Assembly (NCBI GenBank): GCA_016187515.1
Contig: JACPJN010000009.1
Span: 68,891-132,890, forward strand
Direction: 5' to 3'
DNA length: 64,000 nt
Source: Candidatus Uhrbacteria bacterium
Lineage (GTDB): Bacteria > Patescibacteriota > Patescibacteriia > GWA2-47-26
Part shown: piece after piece, positions 5,321-54,449 of the stretch
How positions within the stretch are numbered: position 1 is the stretch's first letter
How the letters are laid out: every line of letters starts with the position of its first letter
The notes under the pieces: model-generated
Seen by the model: the letters and a program-made list of their open reading frames with translations, nothing else
Databases searched by the model: none
What the model was told of the DNA's origin: nothing
Translations under genes and position numbers: made by a program

Positions 5321-6481
5321 CTATAACAATTGCCACAATTTCTGTACCGCGCCAACCGCCATAAGCGCAGCTGCAGCAATTCCCGCCGCGACTTTCCAGT
5401 TCAGTCCGGAAGCGTGTCGGCGCCGCATCAACGCCAGCGCGGCGGCGACAATCACCATCCCCTCCAGTCCGAATAAGACACTGCCCACCACATCAATCAC
5501 GTCAATAAAACTCCTGGCCCCGGCCAAAAACAGCAAAAGCGGAATGCCCGCGGCAAACCCCCAAGCCGGCGTATGCTTTACCAAAAAATCATACTTAAGC
5601 ACCTCCTGCAAATAAAGCGCGATCACAAAATACGAGGTGATAATCGCGAGAAACCCCGTCAGCGCGCCCAGCGCCATGATCCCCGGCCCCAACACCCCTT
5701 GCAATCCGCTAATCGCTTCCTCACTCGTGTTTGATCCGGACACTCCGACCACGGCCAGCATAAAAAGCGCGGTTACGACTACCGGAACCAAGGTACCCAC
5801 CGCGATACTCCGGCGAAATACTCCTTTGCGCCGTTTGACAATATCCCAAAGTTCGGGAATTGCCGCGGCGCCGGAAAGCGAAACCATCAGCACTCCATAA
5901 GGCCCAAACCATCCGCCTCCTCCGGCGGTAAATAAATTCTGCGCGTCAAAATGCGCCAAACCGCGGCCGCTGATGAAAAGCAAAGCGCCGATAAGAAGCC
6001 AGGCCAGGTAAAACTCCACTCCGGCCACCAAGCGCAGCCCAAAAAAGCTCACCGTGGCAACCGCGATAAACAGTATGATGCTATAGGTAAACGCCTCGCC
6101 GCCAAAAATTGGCGTAAGCAGCAGCGAGAGAAACATGCCGCCCACAATCAGATACGCCAGCTGCAGGCCCCAAAAACGCACCACCTCCGTAATCAATACA
6201 ATCCGCTGGCCGGCTTTGCCAAAAGTATACCCCACGTATCCGGGCAAACGATGTTTCCCGGGAGTGGAAGCAATCAGTTCGCCGTAAAACCAGTGCACCG
6301 TCAGCACCAGCACACCCACCACGACAATCCAAAACAGCCCAATCCAAAACCCGGCTTGCGCCGCCACATACGGCGCGCCGAAAATCCCGACCCCGATAAT
6401 CAGCCCGGAAAGCGTGGCAATCGCATGGAGAAATTGTTTCATAAGACCAATAGGACCTATTGGTCTTATAGTATACCACAA
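5321..6481 (-). CDS. polytopic membrane transporter, amino-acid permease-like (Trp/Tyr permease-type)
   Basis: About 11 predicted TM helices and a GxGIFGAPY motif near the N-terminus; start may be the internal M at 6442 (MKQFLH...). Confidence 0.55.
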   Translation of the reverse strand: MWYTIRPIGPIGLMKQFLHAIATLSGLIIGVGIFGAPYVAAQAGFWIGLFWIVVVGVLVLTVHWFYGELIASTPGKHRLPGYVGYTFGKAGQRIVLITEVVRFWGLQLAYLIVGGMFLSLLLTPIFGGEAFTYSIILFIAVATVSFFGLRLVAGVEFYLAWLLIGALLFISGRGLAHFDAQNLFTAGGGGWFGPYGVLMVSLSGAAAIPELWDIVKRRKGVFRRSIAVGTLVPVVVTALFMLAVVGVSGSNTSEEAISGLQGVLGPGIMALGALTGFLAIITSYFVIALYLQEVLKYDFLVKHTPAWGFAAGIPLLLFLAGARSFIDVIDVVGSVLFGLEGMVIVAAALALMRRRHASGLNWKVAAGIAAAALMAVGAVQKLWQLL

Positions 6482-6528: not shown

Positions 6529-7923
6529 GTGAATGGACTACTTATGCCTACCCAATCTCCTCCTTCTTTAGCGCAGCGTATCCCGCCCCAGAATATCGAA
6601 GCCGAGCAGTCGCTGTTGGGCGCGCTTCTGATTGATAAGGACGCGATTATCAAAGTGGCTGACGTGGTCATGCCCGAGGATTTCTATAAAGATATTCATC
6701 GCCTGATCTACGAGGCCATGTCCGGGCTATTCCAGGATCGCGAGCCGATTGACCTGCTTTCGCTCTCCAATCGCCTGGAGGAGAAGAAACAGCTGGAATT
6801 GGTCGGCGGCCGGACCTACTTGATTGAACTTTCCAACGCGGTGCCCACCTCGGCCAATGTTGGCCATTACGCTTCCATTATCCAAAAAAAAGCCACCCTG
6901 CGCCGTCTGCAGCAGGCCGCGGCGCAGATCAGCACGCTTTCATTTGAAGAAGCCGAGGAAGTGGATCATCTTTTGGATAAAGCCGAGCAAAAGTTATTCA
7001 GTGTTTCGCAAAAGTATTTGAAGCAGGCCTTTATTCCGGTGCGCGATGTCTTAACCGAGGCCTTTGACCGCATTGATGAAATCCACCGCGAAAAAGGGAA
7101 ACTGCGCGGACTTTCCAGCGGATTTTTCGCGCTGGATAATCTGCTCGCCGGACTGCAGCGTTCGGATTTGGTCATTCTGGCGGCGCGGCCATCGCTGGGA
7201 AAGACCTCGCTGGCCCTGGATATCGCGCGCAACGTTGCTACGCGCGAAAAAGTTCCGGTCGGCGTCTTTTCTTTGGAAATGTCCAAAGAACAGCTGGTGG
7301 ATCGGCTGATTTGCGCCGAAGCCGGAATTGATCTTTGGCGCATGCGTACCGGACGGCTTTCGGATAAACCAGGCGAAGACGATTTCGCGCGCATTGGACA
7401 CGCGCTGGGGCAGCTCTCCGAGGCCCCCATTTATATTGATGACTCGGCCACCGCGAACATTATGGAAATTCGCACCAAAGCGCGGCGCCTGCAGATGGAA
7501 AAAGGGCTGGGACTCCTGGTGGTGGATTATTTGCAGCTAATGGAATCGCGAACGCGCATTGAAAATCGCGTGCAGGAAATTTCGGAAATTACTCGGGCGT
7601 TAAAAGCGATCGCGCGCGAGCTGAACATTCCGGTGCTCGCCTTGTCCCAGCTTTCCCGCGCGGTGGAGGCGCGCAGCCCCGCGATTCCCAAACTCGCTGA
7701 TCTTCGTGAATCTGGATCGATCGAGCAGGACGCGGACGTCGTGCTGTTTATCTATCGCAAAGCCATGGATAAAGGAGCGCAAAATCTGACGCCCGAGGAA
7801 CGCCATATTGCGGATATTTTTATTGCCAAACACCGCAATGGCCCGACCGGACAGGTGCAATTATTCTTTGACGAACAAAAAGTAAGCTTCCGTAATTTGG
7901 AGAAAACCGGACAGCCGTTTTGA
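6529..7923 (+). CDS. dnaB: replicative DNA helicase
   Basis: N-terminal IPPQNIEAEQSLLGALL, Walker A ILAARPSLGKTSLALD, and IPVLALSQLSRAVE / DADVVLFIYR motifs. Confidence 0.95.
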   Translation: MNGLLMPTQSPPSLAQRIPPQNIEAEQSLLGALLIDKDAIIKVADVVMPEDFYKDIHRLIYEAMSGLFQDREPIDLLSLSNRLEEKKQLELVGGRTYLIELSNAVPTSANVGHYASIIQKKATLRRLQQAAAQISTLSFEEAEEVDHLLDKAEQKLFSVSQKYLKQAFIPVRDVLTEAFDRIDEIHREKGKLRGLSSGFFALDNLLAGLQRSDLVILAARPSLGKTSLALDIARNVATREKVPVGVFSLEMSKEQLVDRLICAEAGIDLWRMRTGRLSDKPGEDDFARIGHALGQLSEAPIYIDDSATANIMEIRTKARRLQMEKGLGLLVVDYLQLMESRTRIENRVQEISEITRALKAIARELNIPVLALSQLSRAVEARSPAIPKLADLRESGSIEQDADVVLFIYRKAMDKGAQNLTPEERHIADIFIAKHRNGPTGQVQLFFDEQKVSFRNLEKTGQPF

Positions 7924-8012
7924 GGTAAATCAAGTGAATCAGGTAAATCAAGTAAATCAAGTAAATCAAGTGAATCAAGTGCCTGATTTACTTGTCTCGC
8001 TTGATTTACCCA
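7922..8012. repeat. tandem 9-bp repeat array (GTAAATCAA/GTGAATCAA about 7 copies) followed by inverted tail CTTGATTTACTTGTCTCGCTTGATTTAC
   Basis: Read directly in the dnaB-recR intergenic region; same architecture recurs at about 48903-49012. Confidence 0.85.
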
Positions 8013-8018: not shown

Positions 8019-8705
8019 ATGCAATTTCCTCCTCCCATCACCCGTCTGATCCAGCATTTCCGCGCGCTCCCCGGCGTGGGCCCGCGCACGGCCGCGCGTT
8101 TTGTATTCGCGCTATTAAACAAACCCGAAGATGAACTGCGTTCCTTTGGCCATGCCCTGGTTGATCTTAAAGAAAGCATCCGCGTGTGCAAAGCATGTTT
8201 CAACGTATCGCTGGCAAATCCCTGCCAAATTTGCGCGGATCCCAATCGCGATGCCGCCGCGCTTTGCGTGGTCGCCCGACCGCAAGATATCCAAGCCCTT
8301 GAAGAAACCCGGGAATATCATGGTCTCTATCACGTCTTGGGTGGGACGCTTAATCCGATTGAGGGCGTAACGCCGGAACAATTGCGGATTAAGGAATTGC
8401 TGAATAGAATTGATAATCCGCCGCTCCCACCCCTCCTAACCTCCCCTCGGGCAGGGGAGGAAAACGATCGTATTTCTCCCCCTTTTCAAGGGGGAGTTAG
8501 AGGGGGTCAAGACATCCAGGAAATCCTCCTCGCCTTAAACCCGGACCTGGAAGGCGAGGCCACCGCGCTTTACCTGGCCAAACTTCTTAAAGCCCGCGTG
8601 CCGCGCGTCACGCGGCTGGCCCGCGGACTGCCCCAAGGCGCGGACCTGGAATACGCCGACGAGGTAACGCTCATCAACGCGATAAAAGGACGAAGGGAAA
8701 TATGA
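8019..8705 (+). CDS. recR: recombination protein RecR, with an in-frame element
   Basis: MQFPPPITRLIQHFRALPGVGPRTAARFVFALL (HhH), C4 zinc finger CKACFNVSLANPCQIC and Toprim; track ORF starts at 7992 but the RecR alignment favours 8019. Confidence 0.88.
   Translation: MQFPPPITRLIQHFRALPGVGPRTAARFVFALLNKPEDELRSFGHALVDLKESIRVCKACFNVSLANPCQICADPNRDAAALCVVARPQDIQALEETREYHGLYHVLGGTLNPIEGVTPEQLRIKELLNRIDNPPLPPLLTSPRAGEENDRISPPFQGGVRGGQDIQEILLALNPDLEGEATALYLAKLLKARVPRVTRLARGLPQGADLEYADEVTLINAIKGRREI
8423..8508. mobile_element. GC-rich MITE-like element (CTCCCACCCC family), in frame in recR
   Basis: Hairpins CCTCCCCTCGGGCAGGGGAGG and CTCCCCCTTTTCAAGGGGGAG; encodes NPPLPPLLTSPRAGEENDRISPPFQGGVRGGQD. 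Confidence 0.8.
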
Positions 8706-9547
8706 AAGAGGATATTTTACACAATCGTGGTTTCATAACACTCCTCGAGGAATTAGGACTATCCGGAAATGAGATAAAATGCTATTTAGCAACATTGGGC
8801 TTGAACTCCGCAACCGTTGCTGAAATTTCAAGCCACGCGGCAGTAAATCGCGTCAATGCCTACAGCGCAGTCAAGAAACTTCTTGAACATGGTCTTTTGG
8901 AACAAGAGATAACTCCAAAAGGACGGCGTATCCGTCCCGCCCCGTTTGACGCGCTTCAGGAACTTGCCCAAAGTTACCAAAAGCATGCTACTCGCCTACG
9001 CTGGAAGATGGAAGATCTAATCAAAGAATTGACTGACCAGCGCGCGCAAAACAATCCGTCACAACCAACGATAATGGGTGAAGTGCTTTTTTTCAGGGGT
9101 GAAGATGCGTTCTACCAAATTGCCGAGCGCACTCTCGCAATACCACCGGGATCGGAGGTCTGCATCCTGGAAGCGTTTGACTATTTTACCCCGCCGGACA
9201 ATCCTACCTATGATGACGAATACTATATCCCAGCGCGTTTAAATCGCGGGGTTTCGGCGCGCATACTCCATCGTCCGGACGAACATGGCCGAGCGTTGCG
9301 CGCCCGCGATCATAAAGAACACCGCGAAACGCGCTTCCTGCCGACTAACATGAATTTTCCGTGCTCCATGTATATTTACGGCGATGAAGTGGCGCTGGTG
9401 TGGACCACTGATCATGTGGTGGGATTGGCCGTACGCGGCGGACCGCTCACGACCTTGATGCGGGCGATGTTTGAGCAATATTGGAAAGCGGCGGCAGCGG
9501 GAAACCTATACCGGGACGCAAAAAACGCGCCTAAAAGTGAGTTGTAA
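8702..9547 (+). CDS. TrmB-like winged-HTH transcriptional regulator with an uncharacterised C-terminal domain (paralog 1)
   Basis: N-terminal LLEELGLSGNEIKCYLATLGLNSATVAEIS...LLEHGLL HTH; ATGA overlap with the recR stop; paralog of 14187..15125 (shared RETRFLP...YIYG.EVA motif). Confidence 0.65.
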   Translation: MKEDILHNRGFITLLEELGLSGNEIKCYLATLGLNSATVAEISSHAAVNRVNAYSAVKKLLEHGLLEQEITPKGRRIRPAPFDALQELAQSYQKHATRLRWKMEDLIKELTDQRAQNNPSQPTIMGEVLFFRGEDAFYQIAERTLAIPPGSEVCILEAFDYFTPPDNPTYDDEYYIPARLNRGVSARILHRPDEHGRALRARDHKEHRETRFLPTNMNFPCSMYIYGDEVALVWTTDHVVGLAVRGGPLTTLMRAMFEQYWKAAAAGNLYRDAKNAPKSEL

Positions 9548-13031: not shown

Positions 13032-14026
13032 GTTGCACCTCCTTGTTTCCACGCAAGAAGCTCAACCAACGCATCCGTCATTGGAAGCTTTGTGAGCTCC
13101 TCAAGCCAAAGCCATTGACCGTTAGGGTTGATTTCAAGAAACACCCACTCACCGTCCGGAGTAAAGATAAGATCAATCGCCCCGAAATTGAGTCCGTATC
13201 GGCGCACCATCTCACGACAACGCGCCTCCACTTCAGATGGCAAGGTAATCGCGCTGTGTAGGGTATGCTCAAAGTCATAGTGACGCCAATCGATCCTTGT
13301 CTTCTCGCTTTCCTGCGAGTCAATCCGCACCGCGAACACCTTATCTCCGATGATCGTTACCCGCGCCTCGTACTGCTTATCCACATACTGCTGGAACAAG
13401 TGCGGCGCAAAACGAATCGTGTCTGCATGCGAAAGAGCATCTTCGCCCACCACGCTCGTGAAAATCGCCGTATCCAGCGGAATCGTCGCCGGCCCACGGC
13501 CAGCGATTTTCACGATCACGCGCCCCTGATGCGCACTCCAAAATCCGCGAAACGTTTCCGGATTGTTGGTGACAAGCGTCTCGGGCGTCTGAAATCCCAG
13601 TTCACGCGCGAGCATGAGCTGGTGCAGTTTGTATTGTGCGGCGTGAAGCGCGTCTGGATGACTGACCCAGACGATGTCCGAAAGACACCTATACAGTCCT
13701 TGCAGGACGTAATGGCACTCGTCGCGCACAAAGGTCTGGACACCAGCGTCAACGATCTCGTCATGAACGACTGCATCCGAAGGCCGCCGATACCAACACG
13801 ATCGAATACAATCCGGCGTCAGCGTGCGCCCGTGATAGCGCAGTTCCCATTGTTCACCACGCCATTCAACCATGATCTCGCGCGGTAAATCCTCGGTATT
13901 GAGACGAAATACCGGAATGTCGCGCTCGTTGAATACTTTGATTACACGACTCGCATGCTCATCGTAACGGTTCGTTACGATAAGCACCGTATCCCGTGCT
14001 CTCATGATTTCTCCTTGGTTTGTCAA
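13028..14026 (-). CDS. ATP-grasp ribosomal peptide maturase (MdnC/MvdD microviridin-type ligase family)
   Basis: 332 aa; TVLIVTNRYDEH, FRLNTEDLP, WYRRP, ETLVTNNPE, FTSVVGEDAL, RVTIIGDKVFAVRIDSQ...IDWR, LNFGAIDLIFTPDGEWVFLEINPNGQWLWLE align block-by-block with MdnC as I recall it; SD AAGGAGAAATC. Confidence 0.85.
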   Translation of the reverse strand: MTNQGEIMRARDTVLIVTNRYDEHASRVIKVFNERDIPVFRLNTEDLPREIMVEWRGEQWELRYHGRTLTPDCIRSCWYRRPSDAVVHDEIVDAGVQTFVRDECHYVLQGLYRCLSDIVWVSHPDALHAAQYKLHQLMLARELGFQTPETLVTNNPETFRGFWSAHQGRVIVKIAGRGPATIPLDTAIFTSVVGEDALSHADTIRFAPHLFQQYVDKQYEARVTIIGDKVFAVRIDSQESEKTRIDWRHYDFEHTLHSAITLPSEVEARCREMVRRYGLNFGAIDLIFTPDGEWVFLEINPNGQWLWLEELTKLPMTDALVELLAWKQGGAT

Positions 14027-14046
14027 AGAGCGGAATGCTCTTCAAC
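14017..14046. promoter_or_regulatory. conserved 28-bp palindromic motif TTGTCAAAGAGCGGAATGCTCTTCAACT immediately upstream of the ATP-grasp SD
   Basis: AAGAGC-GGAAT-GCTCTT inverted repeat; a near-identical copy (1 mismatch) lies at about 36937-36967 upstream of another minus-strand operon. Confidence 0.6.
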
Positions 14047-14186
14047 TGTTGCAGGTGTTTCAGCCCTTGTCTTTCCTTATCATCCTTCTTCGCGCCGATG
14101 AAACATAGATACAAGGAAAGACAACGAGTGAAAACGAAAATCCACCGAAACTTTCCGGTGGACTCTCAAGAAACTATCTCCCTTTT

Positions 14187-15125
14187 TCATTTTTTCTTTT
14201 TCTCCCTCGACTTTCCGGCCATCTGCCAGGCCATTTCGAAAAGAAGTTTCATCACTTCGAAGACCGGACCGCCGCGCACTATCAAGCCAACCATCTCTCC
14301 TCCTTTCCAGGCAAACGCGACCTCCTTGCCATAAATATATACCGCGCACGCGAAATGCAGATCCGGGGGCAAATAACGTGTTTCTCGATTTTCCTTTTTA
14401 TCGCGCTCGTGAAGACGCGCCGCAAAGAGTTCGCGGGCATGAAGACACCGCGCCTTGATTCCACGCTTCACCCGTTCCGGAATGTAAATCATCTCGTCGT
14501 AATCCGGATCATTGGCAGGATGAAAAAAATCCGTCGCCTCAATATAATAGTTTGTCGATCCCGCCGGCACGTCTAAGCTTCGCTCCGCTATCCGCTCCAT
14601 CACTTCATCACCGCGCAAAACCATCAACCCTTCAAAATTCACTCGCGAAGTTCCTTCCTGATCACCGGCACAGGCCAACAATTTAGGAATAATATCCTCA
14701 ATCCGCCAGCGTACCTTGGTGGCGAACTTTTGATGTCCTTGCGCGAGCGCTTGAAGATTTTCAAGCGGTGCAGGATATATCAGACGACTGGCGCGCATCC
14801 CTTCCTGCACGATCAATCCCTGTTCAACCAGTCGCTTAATTGCTCCATACGCATTAACCCGATGTACATGCGCGCGCCGCGCAACATTGTTGATATTCGC
14901 CGGACCTAAACTTAGGGATGCCAGATAGCACTTTACTTCATTCCTTGAGAGACCTAATTTTTCAAGGAGCGCGATAATGCTCCGATCGCGCATGAGGTCT
15001 TCAGTTTCTGGCGTTTTGTTTTTCCGGACTATTGAAGTATTATCGTCTGCCATAAGCGTATGATAGCGCGGGATACTAGTCAAAATTTTTGCTGCCCAAT
15101 TCCTTAGTGGCCAGCCAAAGCCCAA
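14187..15125 (-). CDS. TrmB-like winged-HTH transcriptional regulator (paralog 2); likely start at about 15053 (MADDN) or 14993
   Basis: IIALLEKLGLSRNEVKCYLASLSLGPANINNVARRAHVHRVNAYGAIKRLVEQGLI HTH; C-terminal domain homologous to 8702..9547; the start at 15125 is TTG in the track. Confidence 0.65.
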   Translation of the reverse strand: MGFGWPLRNWAAKILTSIPRYHTLMADDNTSIVRKNKTPETEDLMRDRSIIALLEKLGLSRNEVKCYLASLSLGPANINNVARRAHVHRVNAYGAIKRLVEQGLIVQEGMRASRLIYPAPLENLQALAQGHQKFATKVRWRIEDIIPKLLACAGDQEGTSRVNFEGLMVLRGDEVMERIAERSLDVPAGSTNYYIEATDFFHPANDPDYDEMIYIPERVKRGIKARCLHARELFAARLHERDKKENRETRYLPPDLHFACAVYIYGKEVAFAWKGGEMVGLIVRGGPVFEVMKLLFEMAWQMAGKSREKKKK

Positions 15126-15338
15126 TAGCCACGGAGAAATTTAACCCTTATGGTTGTAGTATAGCATGCTACAACAGTGATATACAAAAGCGGTGCGCTC
15201 TTTTTGAACGCACGCGCCAACTGCGCCCCAATTCGGGCGTCTAGGGATTAGTAGTAAAGGACCCCGTGGCAAGCCACGGGGCATTGAATGGAGCGAGCTA
15301 CGCTCGCTCATACGCCCCGACCGCGGTCGGGGCGGCAT

Positions 15339-15934: not shown

Positions 15935-17467
15935 TTAAGACGCCTTCAATGCGCGGTGGACATCCGGCTTGACGCCGTCAGCCCAAAAATCCTCCACATC
16001 AATCGGCGCGCGGCATCGCGTCTTAAGCGGCGGTCCGGTTCCCGCAAGCGTATATCCGCGGCGAAGCCGACTCGCGCGCCAAGCCGTTTCCGTAAGAGTT
16101 CTGTAGACATTGCGCAAGACCCGGTCCGGACGGAACCCGATGGACCTCGCCAGCGCCATCTCCGCGAACTTTCCTTCGGAAAGATCTCCAAACCAGTAAG
16201 CGCGCGCCAGAATCCGGCCGCGCGGGCTAAAGAAATTCTGGCGATCAATCTCCAGGAGTTCGCCGCGCGGGGATCGGCTCTCCAGATGCGTGAGCCAACT
16301 GCCAAACGCGTCCCAGGTGAAAACCCGTTCACCCCGCTGCGCTTCAATCGCGGCGCGCGCCGCGCTGCGCAGATACTCAATATCCGGCTCGGGCAAAACC
16401 GTCTTAACCAGACCGGCGCTGCGCATTTTTATGGTACTCTGCACCTGCGCTTGGCGGGCCATCTCTCTGACGATGCCAAACCGGCTGCCGATTTCTTCCA
16501 AACTCCAGCCCATCAGATGCAAAACCACAATCTCTCGTCCACGCGACTCAACATCATGCAAACGTTGGAGAAAAGCCGGACTAAGCAGTAACTCCGGAGA
16601 AACCTCAAATTTCGGCTCCGGATCAGCTGCCGCCTCGGCCAAACGATCGCCGACAGTCAGACCTTCACAGCCGCTTATCGGCGCCTCCAGCGAAACCTCG
16701 CGCAGCAGCATAGCATTCTCAATACTGCTGGCCAACTTCTCGGACACACCAAGCTTTTTCCTGATCTCTTCGCGCGTGGGTTTCCGACCAAGCCGTTGAC
16801 CAAGCGCTTTGGCCGTGAATTGGTACTGTACTATTGCATCCACCTTGTGCACCGGAATACGGACCGCCCTTTCCTTGTCTTTAAGCGCCCGGTAAATACC
16901 GGATCTGATCCACCAAGTGGCATAGGTTGAAAACTGAAATCCGCGGCCGGGTTCAAAGCGATCAAAGGCCCGCTCCAGTCCGAGCCATCCTTCCATAAAC
17001 AGGTCTTCCGCGCCCATGTGCCAGACCCGCCTTCTCCGCATTGCCCAGAAAACCAGTTTGGCAACCCATCTGGAGCACGAGATCAGCAGGCGCTCTCGCG
17101 CTTCTTTGTCGCCTTGCTGGCCGCGCCGGATCAGCTCCCGCTGCTCGTCACGCGACAGCCGAGGATTGTTGTCCAGTATGGCCCGCAGGCCCGGTGAAAA
17201 CTCCCGCTGTGTGCGCCGCTTCTCTGCGGCGCCCCAGGAGTCAAGATCAACGGCCTCCTTACCCTGCTCAAGGATCCGCTTATGCGAAACAATGGAAACG
17301 CGCTCGCTCAAAAGCGCGGCTCTGACCGCCTTGAGCGCCGCCGTTTGCACCGCTGGCAAAATCGTCCTGGGAAAGAGCGAACGGATGACCTCCTCCGAGA
17401 TCATGCCGCCCGCGCTATGGGCCAAGGCCTGCGCCTCAGCAACAATGTCCGCGTGCATGATCTCCAT
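15935..17467 (-). CDS. RNA polymerase sigma-70 family factor with a C-terminal extension of about 165 aa
   Basis: Region 2 FSTYATWWIRSGIYRAL, region 3, and region 4 IVVLHLMGWSLEEIGSRFGIVREMARQAQ; 510 aa, the last about 165 aa have no sigma homology. Confidence 0.8.
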   Translation of the reverse strand: MEIMHADIVAEAQALAHSAGGMISEEVIRSLFPRTILPAVQTAALKAVRAALLSERVSIVSHKRILEQGKEAVDLDSWGAAEKRRTQREFSPGLRAILDNNPRLSRDEQRELIRRGQQGDKEARERLLISCSRWVAKLVFWAMRRRRVWHMGAEDLFMEGWLGLERAFDRFEPGRGFQFSTYATWWIRSGIYRALKDKERAVRIPVHKVDAIVQYQFTAKALGQRLGRKPTREEIRKKLGVSEKLASSIENAMLLREVSLEAPISGCEGLTVGDRLAEAAADPEPKFEVSPELLLSPAFLQRLHDVESRGREIVVLHLMGWSLEEIGSRFGIVREMARQAQVQSTIKMRSAGLVKTVLPEPDIEYLRSAARAAIEAQRGERVFTWDAFGSWLTHLESRSPRGELLEIDRQNFFSPRGRILARAYWFGDLSEGKFAEMALARSIGFRPDRVLRNVYRTLTETAWRASRLRRGYTLAGTGPPLKTRCRAPIDVEDFWADGVKPDVHRALKAS

Positions 17468-20287: not shown

Positions 20288-20325
20288 GACGAAACTAACA
20301 TACTGTACAGTATGTTAGTTTCGTC
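20288..20325. repeat. perfect 38-bp palindrome GACGAAACTAACATACTGTACAGTATGTTAGTTTCGTC
   Basis: 18-bp perfect arms around a central TA, read directly; about 220 bp downstream of tRNA-Ile. Confidence 0.85.
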
Positions 20326-23170: not shown

Positions 23171-23361
23171 GGCGGTTTCTCCTTTTGATATTTTTGTCAA
23201 AGAGCCATTCCCTGTTCTCATCATCCCGCTCCCCTGTCCTGACAACTAGAGAAACGTAACGACGCAAAAGTCTACACACTGAAAACATCCCTGAAAAACA
23301 AAAAAAGGTCCGCGCGCCCGGCGTGGCCGCGGTTTCATGGACTAGTCCATGAAACCGGCTG

Positions 23362-23400
23362 CATAAAAAAACGACCCGTCCCTGAGGAACGGATCGGACA
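23362..23400 (-). terminator. conserved terminator cassette (minus strand CCGATCCGTTCCTCAGGGACGGGTCGTTTTTTT)
   Basis: One of at least 5 near-identical copies of AAAAACGACCCGCCCCGTGGAGCGGATCGG (plus-strand reading); GC hairpin plus T-run when read on the minus strand, directly 3' of a minus-strand gene. Confidence 0.7.
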
Positions 23401-23512
23401 AAAGGAACAGCGGACTACGTACGTTATCCTCCCATAGTACTCCCATCATGGACGCAATCGCGCTTTGTGGTGCAGCGGGTGCAGACCACGCGGCCCTCGC
23501 CAAAGATTCGGT

Positions 23513-26312: not shown

Positions 26313-26345
26313 ACAAAAAACGACCCGCCCCGTGGAGCGGATCGG
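26312..26345 (-). terminator. conserved terminator cassette copy
   Basis: AAAAACGACCCGCCCCGTGGAGCGGATCGGGCC directly 3' of the 26358..27422 gene. Confidence 0.7.
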
Positions 26346-26357
26346 GCCAAAGAACAA

Positions 26358-28069: not shown

Positions 28070-28228
28070 AAATAAAAACGACCCGCCCCGTACCTTTCCG
28101 AAGGAGTATCCTTCGTATAGGACAGAGAGAGCCGCAAGGCGGATTCGCCTTCCCGTTTTGCCTTAGGCACCACCACGGCTGGGAAAGGTATGGGGCCCGC
28201 CCCGTGGAGCGGATCGCGGCAAGATTTC
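28070..28228 (-). terminator. terminator cassette copy interrupted by an insertion of about 115 bp
   Basis: AAAAACGACCCGCCCCGT[...115 bp...]CCCGCCCCGTGGAGCGGATCG: the hairpin arms are separated by a structured insert with an internal CCTTTCC...GGAAAGG inverted repeat. Confidence 0.55.
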
Positions 28229-28270
28229 CTGCGGTGCTGATCACCGCCAAAGAACAAAACGCGGTAATTG

Positions 28271-29255: not shown

Positions 29256-29295
29256 AAAAAACGACCCGCCCGCTTGGAACGGATCGGACGGAAAG
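29256..29295 (-). terminator. conserved terminator cassette copy
   Basis: AAAAAACGACCCGCCCGCTTGGAACGGATCGGACGG. Confidence 0.65.
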
Positions 29296-29540
29296 AGCAG
29301 CAGAGCACCGTGCCGTATGGGTAGCGCTCGTCGCTCTGCACGCACCGCGCCACCTTCCGCGCATCGCCGTCGGCGATGGTGAGGTACGCGCTGCAGCGCA
29401 ATCCCGGAAACGATACGGTGAGCGCATCAAATACCATGATCTTCTGCGCGCCTGCTTCACAGCGTGTCTTCACGAAGGTCTGAAACTGCGCCCCCTCGAC
29501 TGCGATTTGCTGCCTTTGCGCCGCATACCCTTTCCAGAAC

Positions 29541-29887: not shown

Positions 29888-29925
29888 ACAAAAACGACCC
29901 GCCCTGGGGAGCGGATCGGACCAAA
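29888..29925 (-). terminator. conserved terminator cassette copy
   Basis: AAAAACGACCCGCCCTGGGGAGCGGATCGGACC 3' of the 29967..30188 gene. Confidence 0.65.
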
Positions 29926-29966
29926 GAACAATACGGCACGCGCGCAAACCGGGCGCTGGATTGCGC

Positions 29967-31900: not shown

Positions 31901-31974
31901 GGCTTTCTCCTTCTATTCCTTGTCAAAGGACCATCTCCAGTACACCACCGCGGGGCGCGTATGTCAATAACCGC

Positions 31975-33712: not shown

Positions 33713-33859
33713 ACGCACTGCACTCGCACCAAGGCGACCATCCGGCCGCCTTGTTTTTTTTGCAGCTTGCCCGCCCGTCCCTTGAAGGCGGCGCGCCGCC
33801 TCAAAGTGACAAATAGAAAAGAGGGTGATTAGCCCTCTTGGAAAAGAACGCTGGCGGCG

Positions 33860-34091
33860 CTACTGCCAGATCTTCCAGGCGCCCCGAGCCAGCGCGCGGC
33901 CCAGAAGCTTATTTTTGACGCGGCGCAGAATTTTGCGCCAATCGCCGCTGGCCAGCACTTCCACATCGCGCACGAGGCGGCTGCCAGTGTACATGCCGCG
34001 CCGCAGTTTTGCAAGCATGCGCCGCGGGTCATCTTCGGCCATTCTGCGATTCCGCGGAATCGCAGAATGTACTTTTATCTTACGGGACATC
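33860..34091 (-). CDS. small highly basic protein (76 aa)
   Basis: MSRKIKVHSAIPRNRRMAEDD...; SD AAAGGAGGA 4 nt upstream of the ATG; 12 nt after the preceding gene's stop. Confidence 0.55.
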
Positions 34092-36265: not shown

Positions 36266-36420
36266 CCTCCTTTTTGGTGTTGATTGACTGTAATTTGATT
36301 GTCAAGGAACGGCTGTTGCTGTTCCGTCCGGTTCGTCCACCGCGTGTTTGGTGAGCAAGCCGGATAGAACGGGATGGAACGCGGCATTGGCGCTCCATCC
36401 CAAAGTATAGATCCCCGGAC

Positions 36421-36883: not shown

Positions 36884-36936
36884 GACGACCTCCTTTTTCG
36901 GGGTTGTTCGGTTTTCCGGCTTTTCAGCCGGGGTGG

Positions 36937-36967
36937 TTGTCAAAGAGCGGGATGCTCTTCAACTTTC
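36937..36967. promoter_or_regulatory. second copy of the 28-bp palindromic motif TTGTCAAAGAGCGGGATGCTCTTCAACT
   Basis: One mismatch relative to the 14017..14046 copy; lies upstream of the first gene of the minus-strand 36.9-33.9 kb operon. Confidence 0.6.
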
Positions 36968-37304
36968 AGACATCGCAAGCTAGGTCAGCATCCACTCGGG
37001 TGCAGTCCCTCAATGGAACCGCCGCGGTCAAGCACGCGCAGACATTCGCGCACCCACTCCGGCATCTCCCGCTGATCCTGCGCGCCAGAACCTCGCGCGT
37101 TTTTCGTCCGGTCCGCCTGCGCCGCGCAAGCGGGTCTGAAAACTTCCGAGACCTCTGCAAATCTTCTCACCATGTTTGTCCTCCTTTTCATTCATCCCCC
37201 TTCTGCTTTTTAGTATAAAAAAACGCCGCGCTGACAAATAGCGACAAGGTCTGAAAAGCAGGCCTCCAGGCCTGCACGACTGTTCTCCCTTTTTGCAACT
37301 AACA

Positions 37305-37370
37305 ACCCAATAACCCAAGTACCTAATCACCTAAATACCTAAGTACCTAATCACCTAATCACCTCACCCT
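37305..37370. repeat. tandem array of 8-9-bp units (TACCTAAGT / CACCTAATC)
   Basis: CAACCCAATAACCCAAGTACCTAATCACCTAAATACCTAAGTACCTAATCACCTAATCACC immediately 3' of the 626-aa gene. Confidence 0.75.
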
Positions 37371-41036: not shown

Positions 41037-41527
41037 TTTCCCCCCCTCTCGGATAGACCCCTCCTATCCTCCCCTTGGTAAGGGGAGGAAATCGGATCGC
41101 TTCTCCCCCTTTTCAAGGGGGAGGTAGAGGGGGTCCGTAGCTTTCTCCCCCTCTCCGAGGGGGAGTCAGAGGGGGTCAAATGTTGTCTGATCTTTTCTAC
41201 CACTCCGGCAATACTATCTCGCACTTCATTGTCCGTAACACGAATCACTCGAATCCCCCGCTGTTCAATAAACCGCTGTCGCGCGGCATCATGGTCGCCA
41301 GCGCCTGCTTGATAATGACTATCCCCATCAACTTCGATTGCTAATTTTGCGGGATCGCAGTAGAAATCAACCACGTACGGACCAATGCCGTATTGACGAC
41401 GAAATTTGTATCCATCGATATATTCCTTGCGGAGATAATACCATAGGATCTTTTCCGCATGCGTCATCCGATTGCGTAATTGCTGTCGTAATGGTGTTTG
41501 AAGTTCACGATTAAATAATGTTCCCAT
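41033..41527 (-). CDS. DUF559 (Vsr-like endonuclease domain) protein with its C-terminal about 45 aa encoded by a repeat element
   Basis: MTHAEKILWYYLRKEYIDGYKFRRQYGIGPYVVDFYCDPAKLAIEVDGDSH...RQRFIEQRGIRVIRV; tail PSDSPSERGRKLRTPSTSPLKRGRSDPISSPYQGED is the translated hairpin array. Confidence 0.75.
   Translation of the reverse strand: MGTLFNRELQTPLRQQLRNRMTHAEKILWYYLRKEYIDGYKFRRQYGIGPYVVDFYCDPAKLAIEVDGDSHYQAGAGDHDAARQRFIEQRGIRVIRVTDNEVRDSIAGVVEKIRQHLTPSDSPSERGRKLRTPSTSPLKRGRSDPISSPYQGEDRRGLSERGGK
41041..41178. mobile_element. GC-rich MITE-like element array (GACCCCTCCTA family, 3 hairpin modules)
   Basis: GACCCCTCCTATCCTCCCCTTGGTAAGGGGAGG ... CTCCCCCTTTTCAAGGGGGAGGTAGAGGGGGTC ... CTCCCCCTCTCCGAGGGGGAGTCAGAGGGGGTC. 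Confidence 0.8.
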
Positions 41528-41537: not shown

Positions 41538-41661
41538 TAGACCCCTCCTAGCCTCCCCTTGGTAAGGGGAGGAAACGATTCAATTTCTCCCCCTCTCGGA
41601 GGGGGAGGTAGAGGGGGTCCGTAGCTTTCTCCCCCTCTCCGAGGGGGAGGTAGAGGGGGTC
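41538..41661. mobile_element. GC-rich MITE-like element (second copy, near-identical to 41041..41178)
   Basis: GACCCCTCCTAGCCTCCCCTTGGTAAGGGGAGG...GAGGGGGAGGTAGAGGGGGTC, present twice; intergenic between the DUF559 and clpC-like genes. Confidence 0.8.
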
Positions 41662-41665: not shown

Positions 41666-44353
41666 CTACAACTTCTCCGCTTTCTCTACCCGTAGCTGCC
41701 CGCCTTTTTCAAGGATCACGAGGTCGCGGCGGCCGAGCTTGGCGGTGAGCAGGAGATTCGCCAGGGCGTCGTTGACGCGCTCTTGGATTACGCGCCGCAG
41801 CGGACGGGCGCCGAAAAGCGGATCAAAGCCGGCATGCGCGAGCTCGGAGACGGCCTCATCAGTGGCGCGGAAGGTAATCCCTTTGGCCTCCAGTTGCTTG
41901 CCGACTTTAGCGAGCATCAGTTTCGCGATCTGCACAATCTCGGTCTCGGAAAGCGGTTTGTACACGATCACGGCATCAAAACGGTTTAAAAATTCCGGCC
42001 TAAAGTATTGCTTCAATTCGCGCTCAACAAGCGTTTTCTTGATCTCCTCCAGTGCCGTGCCTTTTTTAAGCTCTTCTTGAATAAACGGCGTCCCCGCGTT
42101 CGAGGTGCCGATAATAATGGTGTTGGTAAAGTCCACGACCCGTCCGGCGCTGTCGGTTACGCGTCCGTCATCCATCACCTGCAAAAACACGTTTAAAATA
42201 TCCGGATGCGCCTTTTCAATCTCGTCTAAGAGCACCAGCGAAAAGGGATTCTTGCGCACCGGCTCGGTAAGCAGTCCCCCATGCTCGCCCGGAGCGCCAA
42301 GCAGGCGATGCACACTGCCCTTATCTTGATACTCGGACATGTCCACGCGGGCCATGTGTGCTTCATTGCCAAAATACACTTCGGCCACGGTTTTCGCCGT
42401 CTCGGTCTTGCCCACCCCGGTGGGTCCCAGAAACAAGAAATTCGCAATCGGCCGCTTTTGTTCGCGAATCTCGGCGCGCGCGCGGCGCAGGGAGGCCGAG
42501 ACGGCTTTGACTGCCTCATCTTGACCAATGATCCGCGCATGCATTATTTTCTCCAGGTTCAAAAGCTTATCTGCCTCGGCCGCGGTAACCGAAGTAACCG
42601 GAACATGCGACTTTGCGGAAATTATTTCCGCAGCATCTTCTCCGCGCACCAATGCTTTCGCCCCCCGCCGATTGCGCACAAGCTCGGCGCTTTCTTTGGC
42701 CATATCAATCGCTTTTTCCGGGAGCGCTTGCTCTTTAAGAAACCGATCCGAAAGCACGACGGCTTTTTCCAGCGCGTTATACGAAAAATACACGCCGCTT
42801 TGGTGTTCAATCGGACCGACTTTGGATTCTAAAATATGTATCGCCGTATTTACCTCGGGCTCTTCCACCTCAATTTTAATACAGGCATTCCCGAGCGGGC
42901 TGCCTTCGATCCGGGCTTGATATTCTTCCGCAGTTGTGGTCGCGATCGCCAAAAAATACCCTTTTTCCAGCTCGGTGGCGAGCGTCTCTCCCAAATCCAG
43001 CCCGGCCCCCGCGCTGGCGCCGATTAATTCATGGACATTGGGCAGCGCCAAAACTACGTTACGCGAACGCGCAATATCATAAACACAAGTCAGCAAGCGC
43101 TCCTGGGCTTGCGCAGGGTTCGCTCCGGAAACTAATTTCGGTATGGATAATGAAACCAGACGGCGATCCTTAAGCGAGCGCGGAACTTCTTCCTCCACCA
43201 TCCGCTGCGCCAGACCATTAAGTATTGCTTCTTTACCAACCCCATGCGGGCCGACTAGAATAATACTTTTTCGCTCGCCCTCCAGAACCCGGAAAATCTC
43301 GTCAAACTCTTTCGCGCGATCAACCGTAAGCTCCAGATAGCCGCGCCCGGCAAGCCGAGTCAGGTCGTCGGAAAAGCGATCCAACGCCCGGGTCTGGAGC
43401 GCGGTCATCGCGCGATTCATCTCGCCTTTTGGACGGCGCGAGGCGGCGCCGCGAAAATGCTTCCAGCGCCGGCGCAATTCTTCGTTAATCTCCAGCCAGC
43501 GGACGGAATTGCGCAATTTTCGTTCGTCAATTCCCAGGTCGAAAAAAATTTCCTTAAGCCGCTCATCCGCCAGCGCTGTTTGGAGGAGTACCTGATGAGC
43601 GCCGACATATTCACTCTGGGCTTGCTGCGCGTCTTGGTAAGCAGTGATAATGATTTGCTTGGCAGTGTCGCCAAAGGTTGGATCACTCCCACCCCTCCCT
43701 CCCACCCCCTCTTGATCTCCCCCTCGGGCAGGGGGAGAGATTCCTCGGGCAGGGGAGGAAACCGCTTTTTCTCCCCCTCTTAAGTTAAGAGGGGGCAGGG
43801 GGGCGTTATGAACCGATTCCAACACATGCTTTAGGCGATCTTGCAATCCTTTCACATCAATCTCCAGTCGCACAAGAAGAGACGCCACTGACGGCGAACC
43901 CAAAAGCGCCCACATCAAATGCGCCGGCGCGACCTCCGCATGCTTTACGCGCGCAGCCGTGCGGTACGCCCCCCGAATCCGGGCGTACACATCTTCGGTC
44001 AGCGCGCGCGATACATCAATGCGCTTCAACCGTTTCTTTCTCCCCCTTACCAAGGGGGAGATTAAGAGGGGGTGCACCTTCTCTTTTTCCTCTCCTCTTC
44101 TTAATAATCTCATCACCAAATACAAATCCGCAATCAATGAAAACGCAAACACCAATTTTCCTCGTCCGCCAAATTGCCAATAGCGCACGGTAAAAATCCG
44201 CTCCACATCAGGCAGCGCTTCTCCCACCAGTGCTACAATTCCCACCACCGCAAAAGCGCTCACGATCGTGAGGAATATCGCGCGAACAAGTTTGCCCACG
44301 CGCTCCCCCGCCAAACCCGCCCGATCAATTTTTGCTCCGAAATAAAGTTCCAT
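41666..44353 (-). CDS. ClpA/ClpB/ClpC-family AAA+ chaperone ATPase with an unusual N-terminal TM segment and two in-frame element insertions
   Basis: Two Clp_N repeats, NBD1 Walker A GPHGVGKEAIL, NBD2 FLGPTGVGKTETAK, sensor LVLLDEIEKAHPDILNVFLQVMDDGRVTD; the start is uncertain (TM region of about 90 aa precedes Clp_N). Confidence 0.8.
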   Translation of the reverse strand: MELYFGAKIDRAGLAGERVGKLVRAIFLTIVSAFAVVGIVALVGEALPDVERIFTVRYWQFGGRGKLVFAFSLIADLYLVMRLLRRGEEKEKVHPLLISPLVRGRKKRLKRIDVSRALTEDVYARIRGAYRTAARVKHAEVAPAHLMWALLGSPSVASLLVRLEIDVKGLQDRLKHVLESVHNAPLPPLNLRGGEKAVSSPARGISPPARGGDQEGVGGRGGSDPTFGDTAKQIIITAYQDAQQAQSEYVGAHQVLLQTALADERLKEIFFDLGIDERKLRNSVRWLEINEELRRRWKHFRGAASRRPKGEMNRAMTALQTRALDRFSDDLTRLAGRGYLELTVDRAKEFDEIFRVLEGERKSIILVGPHGVGKEAILNGLAQRMVEEEVPRSLKDRRLVSLSIPKLVSGANPAQAQERLLTCVYDIARSRNVVLALPNVHELIGASAGAGLDLGETLATELEKGYFLAIATTTAEEYQARIEGSPLGNACIKIEVEEPEVNTAIHILESKVGPIEHQSGVYFSYNALEKAVVLSDRFLKEQALPEKAIDMAKESAELVRNRRGAKALVRGEDAAEIISAKSHVPVTSVTAAEADKLLNLEKIMHARIIGQDEAVKAVSASLRRARAEIREQKRPIANFLFLGPTGVGKTETAKTVAEVYFGNEAHMARVDMSEYQDKGSVHRLLGAPGEHGGLLTEPVRKNPFSLVLLDEIEKAHPDILNVFLQVMDDGRVTDSAGRVVDFTNTIIIGTSNAGTPFIQEELKKGTALEEIKKTLVERELKQYFRPEFLNRFDAVIVYKPLSETEIVQIAKLMLAKVGKQLEAKGITFRATDEAVSELAHAGFDPLFGARPLRRVIQERVNDALANLLLTAKLGRRDLVILEKGGQLRVEKAEKL
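43684..43812. mobile_element. chimeric GC-rich MITE-like element in frame between the two Clp_N repeats
   Basis: Starts CACTCCCACCCCTCC (CTCCCACCCC-type end) and ends GGGGGCGTTATGAA (TCATAAC-type end); 3-4 hairpins; encodes [40 protein letters not shown]. Confidence 0.75.
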
Positions 44354-46574: not shown

Positions 46575-47882
<1,308 letters not shown>

Positions 47883-48545: not shown

Positions 48546-48926
48546 CTATCGCGCCGCCACTACCCCGGTAGTTGACGACACATATTGCACATCGGTTGCG
48601 GCGATCATGCCGGACTCGCGCACCCAGGCCTCAATCCGTTGCGGCGTCTGCATTTCCGCGCTCTTTAGATTAAGCCGTTTATTTTCAAATTTCAAAGCCT
48701 CAATCCGGCGCTCCAGATCCTTCATTTTGTATCCATGAGTCGAGACGCTGACCATGGTCGTAAGATAAGAAAAGCCAACCGCGATAAGCGCGACCGCTAG
48801 CAAACCGCGCCAGGTTTTACGCGTGCTCATCAGGCGCATTATAAGACCAACTCGCCGCATGGTATGGTGGATTTTCGTAAGGTGGAAATGTCGGGGCATA
48901 ACAATTGAGTAAATCAAGTGAATCAA
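48546..48926 (-). CDS. ftsL: cell division protein FtsL-like (probable start about 48860)
   Basis: Single TM LLAVALIAVGFSYLTTMV followed by coiled coil DLERRIEALKFENKRLNLKSAEMQTP; sits between rsmH and the higBA pair. Confidence 0.65.
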   Translation of the reverse strand: MIHLIYSIVMPRHFHLTKIHHTMRRVGLIMRLMSTRKTWRGLLAVALIAVGFSYLTTMVSVSTHGYKMKDLERRIEALKFENKRLNLKSAEMQTPQRIEAWVRESGMIAATDVQYVSSTTGVVAAR

Positions 48927-49012
48927 GTAAATCAGGTAAATCAGGTAAATCAGGTAAATCAGGTGGCTTGACTTGCCTGCCTCGCTTGATTTACTTGTCT
49001 CGCTACAATTTC
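48903..49012. repeat. tandem 9-bp repeat array (GTAAATCAA/G about 7 copies) with inverted tail CTCGCTTGATTTACTTGTCTCGC
   Basis: Same architecture and unit as 7922..8012; lies between the rsmH stop and the ftsL start. Confidence 0.85.
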
Positions 49013-49998
49013 TCGATAACTCTCATCTTCGCGCTCCGGGCGCGCGGATTTATTCTAATCTCGCTATCACTCGGCACCACTGGTTTTTTGGTAAGTATTT
49101 TTAACTTCTGGTCCGGCCACTGCCGAAAAAACTGTTTGACGATCCGATCTTCCAGCGAATGAAACGCGATGACGGCCAGTCGTCCGCCGCGGTGCAGGAT
49201 TTCCACAGCTTGCGGCAGTACGGCTTGCAAAGCGCCCAGCTCATCATTTACCGCAATCCGCAATGCCTGGAAAGTGCGCGTGGCTGGATGCAATCCGCCG
49301 ATCCAGGGCATGCGATCCGCATTGCTCCCACCCCTCCTCGCCTCCCCTCGGGCAGGGGAGGAAAAATCTTTTCTCCCCCTCTCCGAGGGGGAGTTAGAGG
49401 GGGTGTGCTTACTAAGCTTCTCTCTATACGCTTGCACCACCACATCACTCAGTTGTTTGCTGGTCACCATTGGCTTCTTTTTCCGTTCTTCCACAATGCG
49501 GTTCGCGATCTCGCGCGCTAATCGCTCTTCCCCATATTCCGTGAGTAACTCCGCAAGCTGCTTCTGATTCCACGAGTTCACAATTTCTGCCGCGCGCACG
49601 CCGCGCGACACATCAAACCGCATGTCCAGCAGTTCATCCTTCTCAAACGAGAATCCCCTGCCTCGCTCAAGCGTCGAGGAAGAAAATCCTAGATCAAGAA
49701 GTATTCCCTGCACCGTCCCGAATTTTTGCTCCTTCACAATCGCGGCCAAGTTCCGGAAATTATCATTCACGAGCACAATGCGATTCAAGTATTTTCTAAT
49801 TTCGAATTGCGAATTTCTAATTTCAGTGATGGCGTCTGGATCGGCATCTATACCTAGTAATCTTCCAACGGGCGCGGTGTGCTGTAGGATTGCGGCACTA
49901 TGACTGCCATCACCGATCGTGCAATCCACAAAATTCTGATTCGGTTTAGGGTCAAGGAACTTCAGCGCTTCTTCTACCATGACTGGCACATGGGACAT
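49003..49998 (-). CDS. rsmH: 16S rRNA (cytosine1402-N4)-methyltransferase with in-frame insertions
   Basis: MSHVPVMVEEAL, FVDCTIGDGSHS, DLGFSS and AFHSLEDRIVK motifs; inserted HTPSNSPSERGRKDFSSPARGEARRGGSN and EIRNSQFEIRKY segments. Confidence 0.9.
   Translation of the reverse strand: MSHVPVMVEEALKFLDPKPNQNFVDCTIGDGSHSAAILQHTAPVGRLLGIDADPDAITEIRNSQFEIRKYLNRIVLVNDNFRNLAAIVKEQKFGTVQGILLDLGFSSSTLERGRGFSFEKDELLDMRFDVSRGVRAAEIVNSWNQKQLAELLTEYGEERLAREIANRIVEERKKKPMVTSKQLSDVVVQAYREKLSKHTPSNSPSERGRKDFSSPARGEARRGGSNADRMPWIGGLHPATRTFQALRIAVNDELGALQAVLPQAVEILHRGGRLAVIAFHSLEDRIVKQFFRQWPDQKLKILTKKPVVPSDSEIRINPRARSAKMRVIEKL
49325..49406. mobile_element. GC-rich MITE-like element (CTCCCACCCC family) in frame in rsmH
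   Basis: GCTCCCACCCCTCCTCGCCTCCCCTCGGGCAGGGGAGG...CTCCCCCTCTCCGAGGGGGAGTTAGAGGGGGTG. Confidence 0.8.
49786..49835. repeat. AT-rich insertion (TATTTTCTAATTTCGAATTGCGAATTTCTAATTTCAGTG) in frame in rsmH
   Basis: Shares the ATTTCTAATTTCGAAT core with the tgt insertion; low GC island inside a GC-rich CDS. Confidence 0.65.
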
Positions 49999-54411: not shown

Positions 54412-54449
54412 GATCTCCCTCCCTTAAGGTAAGGGAGGGTTGGGGTGGG

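Follow-up and report, generated by a model that had tools for sequence, protein, structure and literature searches.

The stretch of DNA analysed here (the window: 64,000 nucleotides of contig JACPJN010000009.1 from a Candidatus Uhrbacteria bacterium) contains a graspetide locus whose ATP-grasp gene is preceded by a 28-nucleotide imperfect palindrome, the 28-mer, a nearly identical copy of which precedes a distant operon of membrane-protein genes. The first copy (site 1) is flanked by the intrinsic terminator of a TrmB-like regulator gene (Pfam PF01978), a stem and U tract at 14135..14168 on the minus strand that is kept in the related loci L007 and L009, and by the Shine-Dalgarno (SD) sequence and start codon of an MvdD-type ATP-grasp maturase gene (Pfam PF21068; TIGR04187), with 14 nucleotides (nt) between the 28-mer and the ATP-grasp ATG. 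Downstream of the maturase gene are genes for a small CXXC protein and for two precursors with the leader signature Phhx(1,2)h (PFLFHF and PFSLHF), a feature described for graspetides of the candidate phyla radiation (CPR) (Makarova et al. 2022, PMC8939145). In having an MvdD-type ATP-grasp gene followed by small Phhx(1,2)h precursors, the site 1 operon is a cluster of the type described there, but a term search of that paper gave no cis-regulatory element and no TrmB-like partner gene. A second TrmB-like paralogue is encoded at 8702-9547, placing two TrmB-like genes within 6 kb.

The second copy (site 2) precedes by 53 nt the ATG (36883) of the first of five minus-strand genes (36.9-33.9 kb), which end at a terminator near 33819-33839. 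The products are lineage-specific, namely two membrane proteins of 82 and 258 amino acids (aa), two smaller ones of 69 and 76 aa, and one of 455 aa whose N-terminal part has a hydrophobic segment, and each has one non-identical homologue in a search of 5.8 billion sequences. The preliminary description of this DNA placed both sites correctly with respect to these genes and to the TrmB-like terminator, but it missed the minus-strand reading of both copies, as well as an unannotated open reading frame (ORF) of 62 aa at 36985..37173 (minus strand), which has the strong SD sequence AAAGGAGG, begins MVRRFAEVSEVFRPACAAQ and ends with a stop codon 20 nt 5' of site 2. The codon score of this ORF is 0.17 bits per codon in frame as against -0.12 to -0.34 in the other five frames, resembling that of accepted genes, and the 36.9-33.9 kb operon probably begins with this ORF. 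Upstream of it are a terminator (37275-37253) and a TATACT box (37217-37212). Because the stop codon is directly 5' of site 2, and the terminator and TATACT box are further upstream, site 2 looks intercistronic rather than promoter-proximal and is probably inside a transcript. On the 3' side of site 2, at 36916-36931, is a mini-hairpin, CCGGCUGAAAAGCCGG, that contains the word GGCUGAAA and is kept in the related contig L013. Two contigs of this relative, L013 and L017, come from different samples, encode operon proteins that are 81-83% identical to those of the window, and start at an identical position, leaving 44 nt upstream of the 82-aa gene; because both begin just 3' of the expected position of site 2, that position is cut off in them. 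The shared start suggests a repeat-induced break, and a mini-hairpin, CUGGCUGAAAAGCCGG, is retained within the remaining leader (positions 1-44 of both contigs).

Written as TTGTCAAAGAGCGGRATGCTCTTCAACT, that is, TTGTCAAAGAGCGG(A/G)ATGCTCTTCAACT, the 28-mer has exactly two matches in the window, at 14020-14047 and 36937-36964. The two copies are identical at 27 of 28 positions, the sole difference being the central A/G, and no match arises in 100 dinucleotide-preserving shuffles even when up to three mismatches are allowed. The repeat is genuine and does not reflect chance, in agreement with the preliminary description, which had reported the motif twice with a single central mismatch, although at coordinates (14017-14046 and 36937-36967) that are about 3 nt off. 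The palindromic core that it had recognised, AAGAGC-N5-GCTCTT, is a perfect 6-N5-6 inverted repeat at both sites, providing the dyad expected of a site for a winged helix-turn-helix dimer; beyond these 6 base pairs (bp), the dyad symmetry is imperfect as DNA (8 of 10 positions). Both copies are in sense orientation 5' of minus-strand genes, the downstream genes reading A-GUUGAAGAGC-AUYCC-GCUCUUUGAC-AA.

The strand on which the element is read makes a difference to its structure. The DNA palindrome of 6 bp lengthens to 10 bp on the sense strand alone, through a U.G and a G.U pair followed by two Watson-Crick pairs; on the antisense strand the positions of the two wobble pairs are A-C and C-A mismatches, and only 6 bp pair. 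The site 1 hairpin (14022..14046, minus strand) has its 5' arm GUUGAAGAGC at 14046-14037, the loop AUUCC at 14036-14032 and the 3' arm GCUCUUUGAC at 14031-14022, and the stem is followed by AAACC, the SD sequence AAGGAG and the ATG at 14005. The site 2 hairpin (36939..36963, minus strand) has the same arms and the loop AUCCC. Predicted folding energies follow this asymmetry, with -12.7 kcal/mol (z -5.15) for the sense and -8.2 kcal/mol (z -1.25) for the antisense strand of site 1, -12.7 (z -4.87) and -10.3 kcal/mol (z -2.61) for site 2, and -9.8 (z -4.52) and -5.2 kcal/mol (z -0.49) for the orthologous hairpin of L007. The sense-strand hairpin is thus as stable as would be expected of a 5'-terminal mRNA stabiliser, with a z-score of about -5 and none of 200 shuffles equally stable. 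It is not an intrinsic terminator, since AAACC or AACCA, and not a U tract, follows the stem, and terminator scans miss both sites yet find the true terminators nearby. A search of the window with the covariance models of Rfam 15 gave only a transfer RNA at the gathering threshold and no cis-regulatory family; around both sites, at E-values up to 10, it gave only generic hairpin matches (microRNA and small nucleolar RNA models) far below their thresholds. A hammerhead or preQ1-like riboswitch was considered and rejected for want of Rfam support.

The 3' half of the element recurs without its partner. The word CTTTGACAA is found exactly four times in the window (14020, 23194, 31920 and 36937), as compared to 0.46 expected, and none of 100 shuffles reaches four; all four copies are on the minus strand, 5' of a start codon. 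One belongs to a degenerate third copy of the element (23193..23216, minus strand), 5' of a probable lipoprotein gene and at a distance of 22 nt from its ATG (23170), where the 13-mer GCUCUUUGACAAA (GCTCTTTGACAAA) at 23193-23205 is common with site 1 and the 5' half has diverged, giving AACAGG-GAAUG-GCUCUU with two mismatches to the core palindrome. Another is CUUUGACAA alone (31920..31928, minus strand), 19 nt 5' of the ATG at 31900 of a gene for a MopE-motif protein with a lipobox; because it follows a canonical promoter-like site, TTGACA-17-TGTACT, by about 10 nt, the transcript probably carries it among its first bases. Within the site 2 operon, the one-mismatch variant CCUUGACAA (CCTTGACAA) at 36299..36307 (minus strand) is preceded by a small hairpin, GGAAC-N10-GUUCC, lies 39 nt 5' of the ATG at 36259, and is kept in the orthologous L013. 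Taking the window together with related loci, 8 of 10 TTTGACAA words are in sense orientation just 5' of a start codon, seven of them at 15-53 nt. Inspection found no two-block motif 5' of CTTTGACAA common to all of these sites. Pairing of CTTTGACAA with distant TGTCAA words was also considered and set aside, as the TGTCAA at 31984 is the -35 box of a divergent promoter and the fold with that at 23245 is not significant (z -1.4), as was a reading of TTGAA/TTGAC direct repeats as response-regulator sites, whose spacing is inconsistent among sites. The preliminary description had hinted at a regulon of secreted or envelope proteins and the graspetide, a peptide made on ribosomes and modified after translation (RiPP), and had pointed to half-motifs upstream of several lipoprotein genes. 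What holds of this is that two operons share a non-random cis-element, that its 3' half is enriched, and that CTTTGACAA is in the leaders of two probable lipoprotein genes (23170 and 31900, with lipobox-like N-termini); the third half-motif, at 36299, has a mismatch, and its gene encodes a polytopic membrane protein.

Conservation of the element was assessed in ten related ATP-grasp loci. Nine of them have the TrmB-like gene immediately 5' of the ATP-grasp gene, and in the tenth, L018, it lies close by, 3' of the precursors. In L008 (136-1968), L012 (711-2653), L015 (275-2072) and L016 (3-1716) the two genes are separated by 6-44 nt or share a 44-nt overlap, so that co-transcription is likely to be ancestral and there is no room for the motif; the spacer would then be, as seems likely, a later insertion between co-transcribed genes. 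A spacer with terminator and hairpins is found only in the window, L007, L009, L010 and L011. The 28-mer hairpin is kept in one of the ten loci (L007), partial or remodelled in two (L009 and L010) and absent from seven, among them L008, L011, L012, L015, L016 and L018; in four of the seven the genes abut or overlap. In L007, whose ATP-grasp protein is 84% identical, the 3' arm is unchanged, the loop is AUUUC, and the 5' arm has three changes, two of which are compatible with pairing (C-G to U.G and U.G to C-G); the core DNA palindrome loses a position while the RNA stem stays. L010 retains the outer words [CT]TGAA.. and CTTTGACAACC. Only GGCTG.AA and TTTGA.AA are invariant across the four leaders that can be aligned; the former corresponds to GGCUGAAA at 14058..14065 (minus strand), which reads GGCUG.AA in all four orthologous leaders having the spacer.

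A second hairpin of the spacer, H2 (14067..14124, minus strand), lies between the TrmB-like terminator and GGCUGAAA. Seven of its 13 consensus pairs carry compensatory double changes among three sequences (window; L007, 1571-1594; L009, 4905-4937), as against 0-3 in slid controls, the sequence varying among genomes while the structure, with several sense-strand G.U pairs, is kept. Scored jointly, H2 and the 28-mer hairpin have 95% of cells paired versus 35-61% in slid alignments. Because the compensatory pairs and the sense-strand G.U pairs recur in three genomes, the site 1 spacer appears to be constrained as sense-strand RNA; H2 might act as a further terminator or belong to a leader RNA.

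The preliminary description had seen in the 28-mer the shape of an operator, with the adjacent TrmB-like regulators as obvious candidates to bind it, and a dimeric helix-turn-helix regulator, possibly a TrmB-like paralogue such as that at 8702-9547, might indeed bind AAGAGC-N5-GCTCTT as DNA and repress both operons, by covering a weak -10 box or transcription start at site 1 or by acting as a roadblock at site 2. The core is a perfect 6-N5-6 repeat next to a TrmB-like gene, with a second such gene within 6 kb, and the identity of 27 of 28 positions, flanks included, suggests sequence-specific recognition. Characterized TrmB-family sites are also inverted repeats, TACT-N3-AGTA, TATCAC-N5-GTGATA (archaeal TrmBL1/Tgr) and TACT-N7-8-GAGTA (PMC4158304), and the 6-N5-6 geometry is that of the TrmBL1/Tgr site, the Thermococcales glycolytic motif (TGM). 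The likeness does not extend beyond the N5 spacing, as the 28-mer has no TACT or TATCAC half-site and no sequence similarity to the known sites, and other observations argue against an operator. The outer four positions pair only as RNA and on one strand, a strand-specific G.U extension that the TrmB-family operators lack, and L007 weakens the DNA palindrome while keeping the RNA stem. A symmetric dimer site, the shape that had been attributed to the motif, predicts something other than what is seen at the additional sites, each of which retains just one half, invariably the same one, in sense orientation. Site 2 follows a stop codon and has no -35 box at workable spacing. Finally, the 28-mer is not linked to the TrmB-like gene or to its pairing with the ATP-grasp gene, being kept in one, partial in two and missing from seven of the related loci.

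The TrmB-like gene has a conserved palindrome of its own, of other sequence and spacing, GTTGTAG-CATGCTATA-CTACAAC (15153..15175, minus strand; GTTGTAG-N9-CTACAAC), which has a single occurrence in the window, about 100 nt upstream of the TrmB-like ATG. In it is embedded the -10 box TATACT (15163-15158) of a canonical promoter located some 100 to 170 nt 5' of the gene, with the -35 box TTGTAT 18 nt 5'. All eight loci that cover the region upstream of the TrmB-like gene, the distant L018 among them, carry the core of the palindrome, TGTAG-N9-CTACA (L007, 548-570; L009, 3921-3943; L010, 134-156; L011, 1754-1776; L012, 586-608; L018, ~1905-1925), and across loci the palindrome overlaps a TATACT -10 box that has a TTGACA-type -35 box 16-18 nt 5'. 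L018 also carries GTTGTCG-N9-CGACAAC 5' of its ATP-grasp gene. Unlike the 28-mer, this palindrome is conserved with the TrmB-like gene and contains TACT; the two elements have at most one half-site-like word alike (GTTGAAG versus GTTGTAG). GTTGTAG-N9-CTACAAC is probably the autoregulatory operator of the TrmB-like protein, and in any case a far better candidate than the 28-mer. With G.U pairs on the sense strand only, a hairpin retained in one of ten related loci and a different palindrome in eight of eight, the assignment of the 28-mer to the adjacent TrmB-like regulators is not supported, and a DNA operator of any kind is a rather doubtful explanation of it. A second promoter-like site, AAAAATTTTGACT-17-TACGCT, is present 5' of the TrmB-like gene at 15053-15090 (minus strand) and at the same place in L007, L008 and L009. 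In several orthologues the TACGCT-type -10 box is followed by T-ATG, too close for translation of that ATG from such a transcript, and the site may mark either two transcript or protein isoforms or a miscalled start codon.

Could the 28-mer instead be part of a promoter? A promoter scan called no sigma-70 promoter at either site, a further point against an operator as well. A weak CTGAAA-17-GAGCAT is readable at site 1, with GGCTGAAA exactly 17 nt 5' of GAGCAT, GAGTAT and ATTGAT in the window, L007 and L009, respectively, and the palindrome could straddle this weak -10 box, as an operator might; no such promoter is readable at site 2. The possibility to be weighed here is that TTGACA of the 3' arm, or TTGAAG of the 5' arm, is a -35-type box for the housekeeping or an alternative sigma factor, a shared promoter explaining the identity of the two copies. 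TTGACA is the strongly conserved -35 consensus of this genome, often as CTTTGACA or TTTGACA, and the element is orientation specific. The window also encodes a sigma-70-family protein of 510 aa (15935-17467, minus strand), 2 kb 5' of the graspetide locus, which is far below RpoD cut-offs and has long N- and C-terminal extensions, and an extracytoplasmic function (ECF) sigma factor (52349-52906, minus strand), either of which could read non-canonical promoters. Nevertheless, a functional -35 box in TTGACA of the 3' arm is excluded at no fewer than three sites, where it is 15-24 nt before the ATG (15 nt at site 1) and transcription starting about 35 nt downstream would be intracoding, the start codons being fixed by N-terminal conservation and strong SD sequences. 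No common -10-like hexamer follows 16-18 nt downstream, and spacing to neighbouring conserved words differs by 6-19 nt among orthologues, making a promoter element very improbable. An ECF-type promoter (TGAAAC/TGCAAC at site 1) was rejected, having no counterpart at site 2.

The 28-mer might also be a neutral or selfish palindromic repeat, similar to repetitive extragenic palindromic (REP) sequences or miniature inverted-repeat transposable elements, that has spread to, or been homogenised among, a handful of intergenic positions without any dedicated role in regulation. As a short, imperfect, extragenic palindrome it fits such a class. The window is rich in reused intergenic hairpins, with 127 short inverted repeats and many short palindromic repeat families; its 64 kb hold two intact copies of the 28-mer and a decayed one, in unrelated contexts; the element is patchy among close relatives, with indels at its borders; and the assemblies L013 and L017 break at the same base just 3' of the expected site 2. 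Similarly, palindromes of REP type and those of bacterial interspersed mosaic elements are repeated in a genome and transcribed with their neighbours, and the host carries several such families. The 28-mer differs from them in numbering only two or three per 64 kb, in its position 5' of genes (REP sequences are usually at 3' ends) and in its uniform orientation, with none of the copies intragenic or antisense. A covariance model built from three hairpins found no further copy in the window and related loci (99 kb), the next match being in L010 (14 bits, E 0.35). Scans with the exact pattern TTGAAGAGC-N5-GCTCTTTGACAA, extending the motif search that the preliminary description had suggested, gave only unrelated coding matches attributable to chance: one in the genome contig collection (a Myxococcaceae coding sequence), three among metagenome contigs of other GC content (for example, DnaB), and three in viral contigs; Logan contigs identical to the window added nothing on the 28-mer, which is present in samples of the SRR12113428/SRR12113384 type. 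Moreover, L007 and L010 both retain the 3' half at the orthologous position, in spacers that otherwise diverge. On balance, a repeat with no dedicated role seems unlikely.

The reading that we tentatively prefer, short of calling it probable, is that the 28-mer is a reused RNA stem-loop of leader or intercistronic regions that acts post-transcriptionally. Transcripts of the minus (sense) strand would include the 28-mer in the leader of the ATP-grasp and graspetide genes at site 1 and in the gap between the 62-aa ORF and the membrane-protein genes at site 2, and its transcript would fold as the 10-bp hairpin GUUGAAGAGC-AUYCC-GCUCUUUGAC. The 3' arm would be the leader word CUUUGACAA, which is predicted to be unpaired elsewhere, just 5' of the SD sequence of other envelope-protein genes. 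Such a hairpin might protect the downstream message from 5'-end-dependent decay or form a processing boundary, uncoupling downstream genes from those upstream (at site 1, the regulator gene); alternatively, it might mask CUUUGACAA or a nearby SD sequence. We infer from sequence both the transcription of the 5' arm and the function of the hairpin. In favor of a stem-loop acting as RNA, the copies and half-copies are all sense-oriented 5' of start codons, and a low-copy leader hairpin cassette fits the habit of this genome of reusing other intergenic hairpin cassettes.

Several observations weigh against the stem-loop. A strong terminator precedes site 1, and the 5' arm would be outside the RNA if the weak CTGAAA-17-GAGCAT promoter fires. 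The identity of 27 of 28 positions between the copies is not explained by RNA structure alone, the full-length fold of the site 2 region favours another pairing, and the orientation bias is based on just four to five independent sites. Among relatives, the hairpin is remodelled in L009 (65% identical), and L010, the closest orthologue by protein (85%), breaks the inner stem with three central mismatches and no compensation. None of nine pairs of the 28-mer hairpin shows double changes, and compatible single changes number two; covariation thus neither supports nor refutes this hairpin.

Stem-loops near the 5' end or between cistrons stabilise a number of bacterial mRNAs, examples being the cggR-gapA processing site of Bacillus subtilis and the aprE and ermC 5' hairpins. 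Site 1 resembles them in being a stable sense hairpin just 5' of an SD sequence, between a regulator and an enzyme gene, with no U tract. It differs in that a 28-nt sequence is reused here at two unrelated operons and in that the word of its 3' arm, CUUUGACAA, is also found unpaired in other leaders.

A more speculative extension, which we regard as quite unlikely, is that the whole spacer (H2, GGCUGAAA, the 28-mer hairpin and CUUUGACAA) is a new lineage-specific cis-regulatory leader RNA that controls production of a CPR graspetide, a RiPP. The pyrimidine loop of the hairpin, AUUCC or AUUUC, could pair with the SD sequence GGAG or GGAA a short way (a few nt) downstream, and an RNA-binding protein or small ligand would read the leader; the hairpin module, common to the orphan envelope-protein operon, would co-regulate peptide production and cell-surface remodelling post-transcriptionally. 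Pairing of loop and SD sequence fits site 1 and L007, but not site 2.

Almost nothing is known of gene regulation in CPR bacteria (Patescibacteria), and nothing of the control of their graspetide clusters. Should the hairpin prove to be a functional leader element common to a RiPP operon and an orphan membrane-protein operon, it would offer an initial way into the co-regulated genes of an uncultured symbiont; as it stands, the 28-mer is a low-copy cis-element of uncertain function and moderate value. The search for the target of the TrmB-like regulator is now redirected to the promoter palindrome GTTGTAG-N9-CTACAAC. The TrmB-like protein itself looks like an integral, co-translated part of CPR graspetide clusters, its gene often being translationally coupled in them, and it is a partner unmentioned in PMC8939145.

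The other reused hairpins of the window fall into several families. About ten copies of an SD-hairpin family (CTCCCTCCCTTAAGGTAAGGGAGGG.., or CTCCCTCCCTTAAGGTAAGGGAGGGTTGGGGTG on the plus strand) are in intercistronic gaps of minus-strand operons, at 910-942, 43771-43803, 47222-47254, 53958-53990, 54415-54447, 55998-56030, 56496-56528, 57300-57332, 58655-58687 and 59910-59942. Because the G-rich 3' arm of the sense strand, UAAGGGAGGG, is the SD sequence of the next gene, that SD sequence would be locked in a 10-bp stem, forming a repeated SD-sequestering cassette. A second hairpin family of about nine copies (TTCTCCCCCTCTCCGAGGGGGAG..; TTTCTCCCCCTCTCCGAGGGGGAG-TAGAGGGGGTC), often paired in tandem at a distance of 42 nt, occupies intergenic positions at 8450-8508, 41077-41177, 41561-41661, 44025-44073, 49347-49405, 53210-53268, 56876-56924 and 63423-63481; Logan contig L005, from the same genome, ends at about window position 8480, within the copy at 8450-8508. 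A reused terminator hairpin, CGATCCGYTCC-loop-GGGCGGGTCG followed by a U run (sense strand), is found after five different genes (23366-23414, 26316-26357, 28188-28229, 29256-29304 and 29888-29936).

Other repeats and palindromes of the window are of lower copy number. Tandem 9-mers (GTAAATCAA/GTGAATCAA) are found at 7907-8011 and 48882-48986, 5' of genes starting at 8019 (plus strand) and 48899 (minus strand), and tandem 8-mers of the minus strand (GGTGATTA/GGTACTTA) at 37296-37359, right after the stop codon of a 626-aa gene. A perfect 14-bp palindrome, ATAAGACCAATAGG-N1-CCTATTGGTCTTAT (6441-6469), lies between a TATACT box and an ATG in the divergent 6442/6529 intergenic region, and further long perfect palindromes occur at 20288-20325, 23330-23357, 34040-34069 and 50706-50739.

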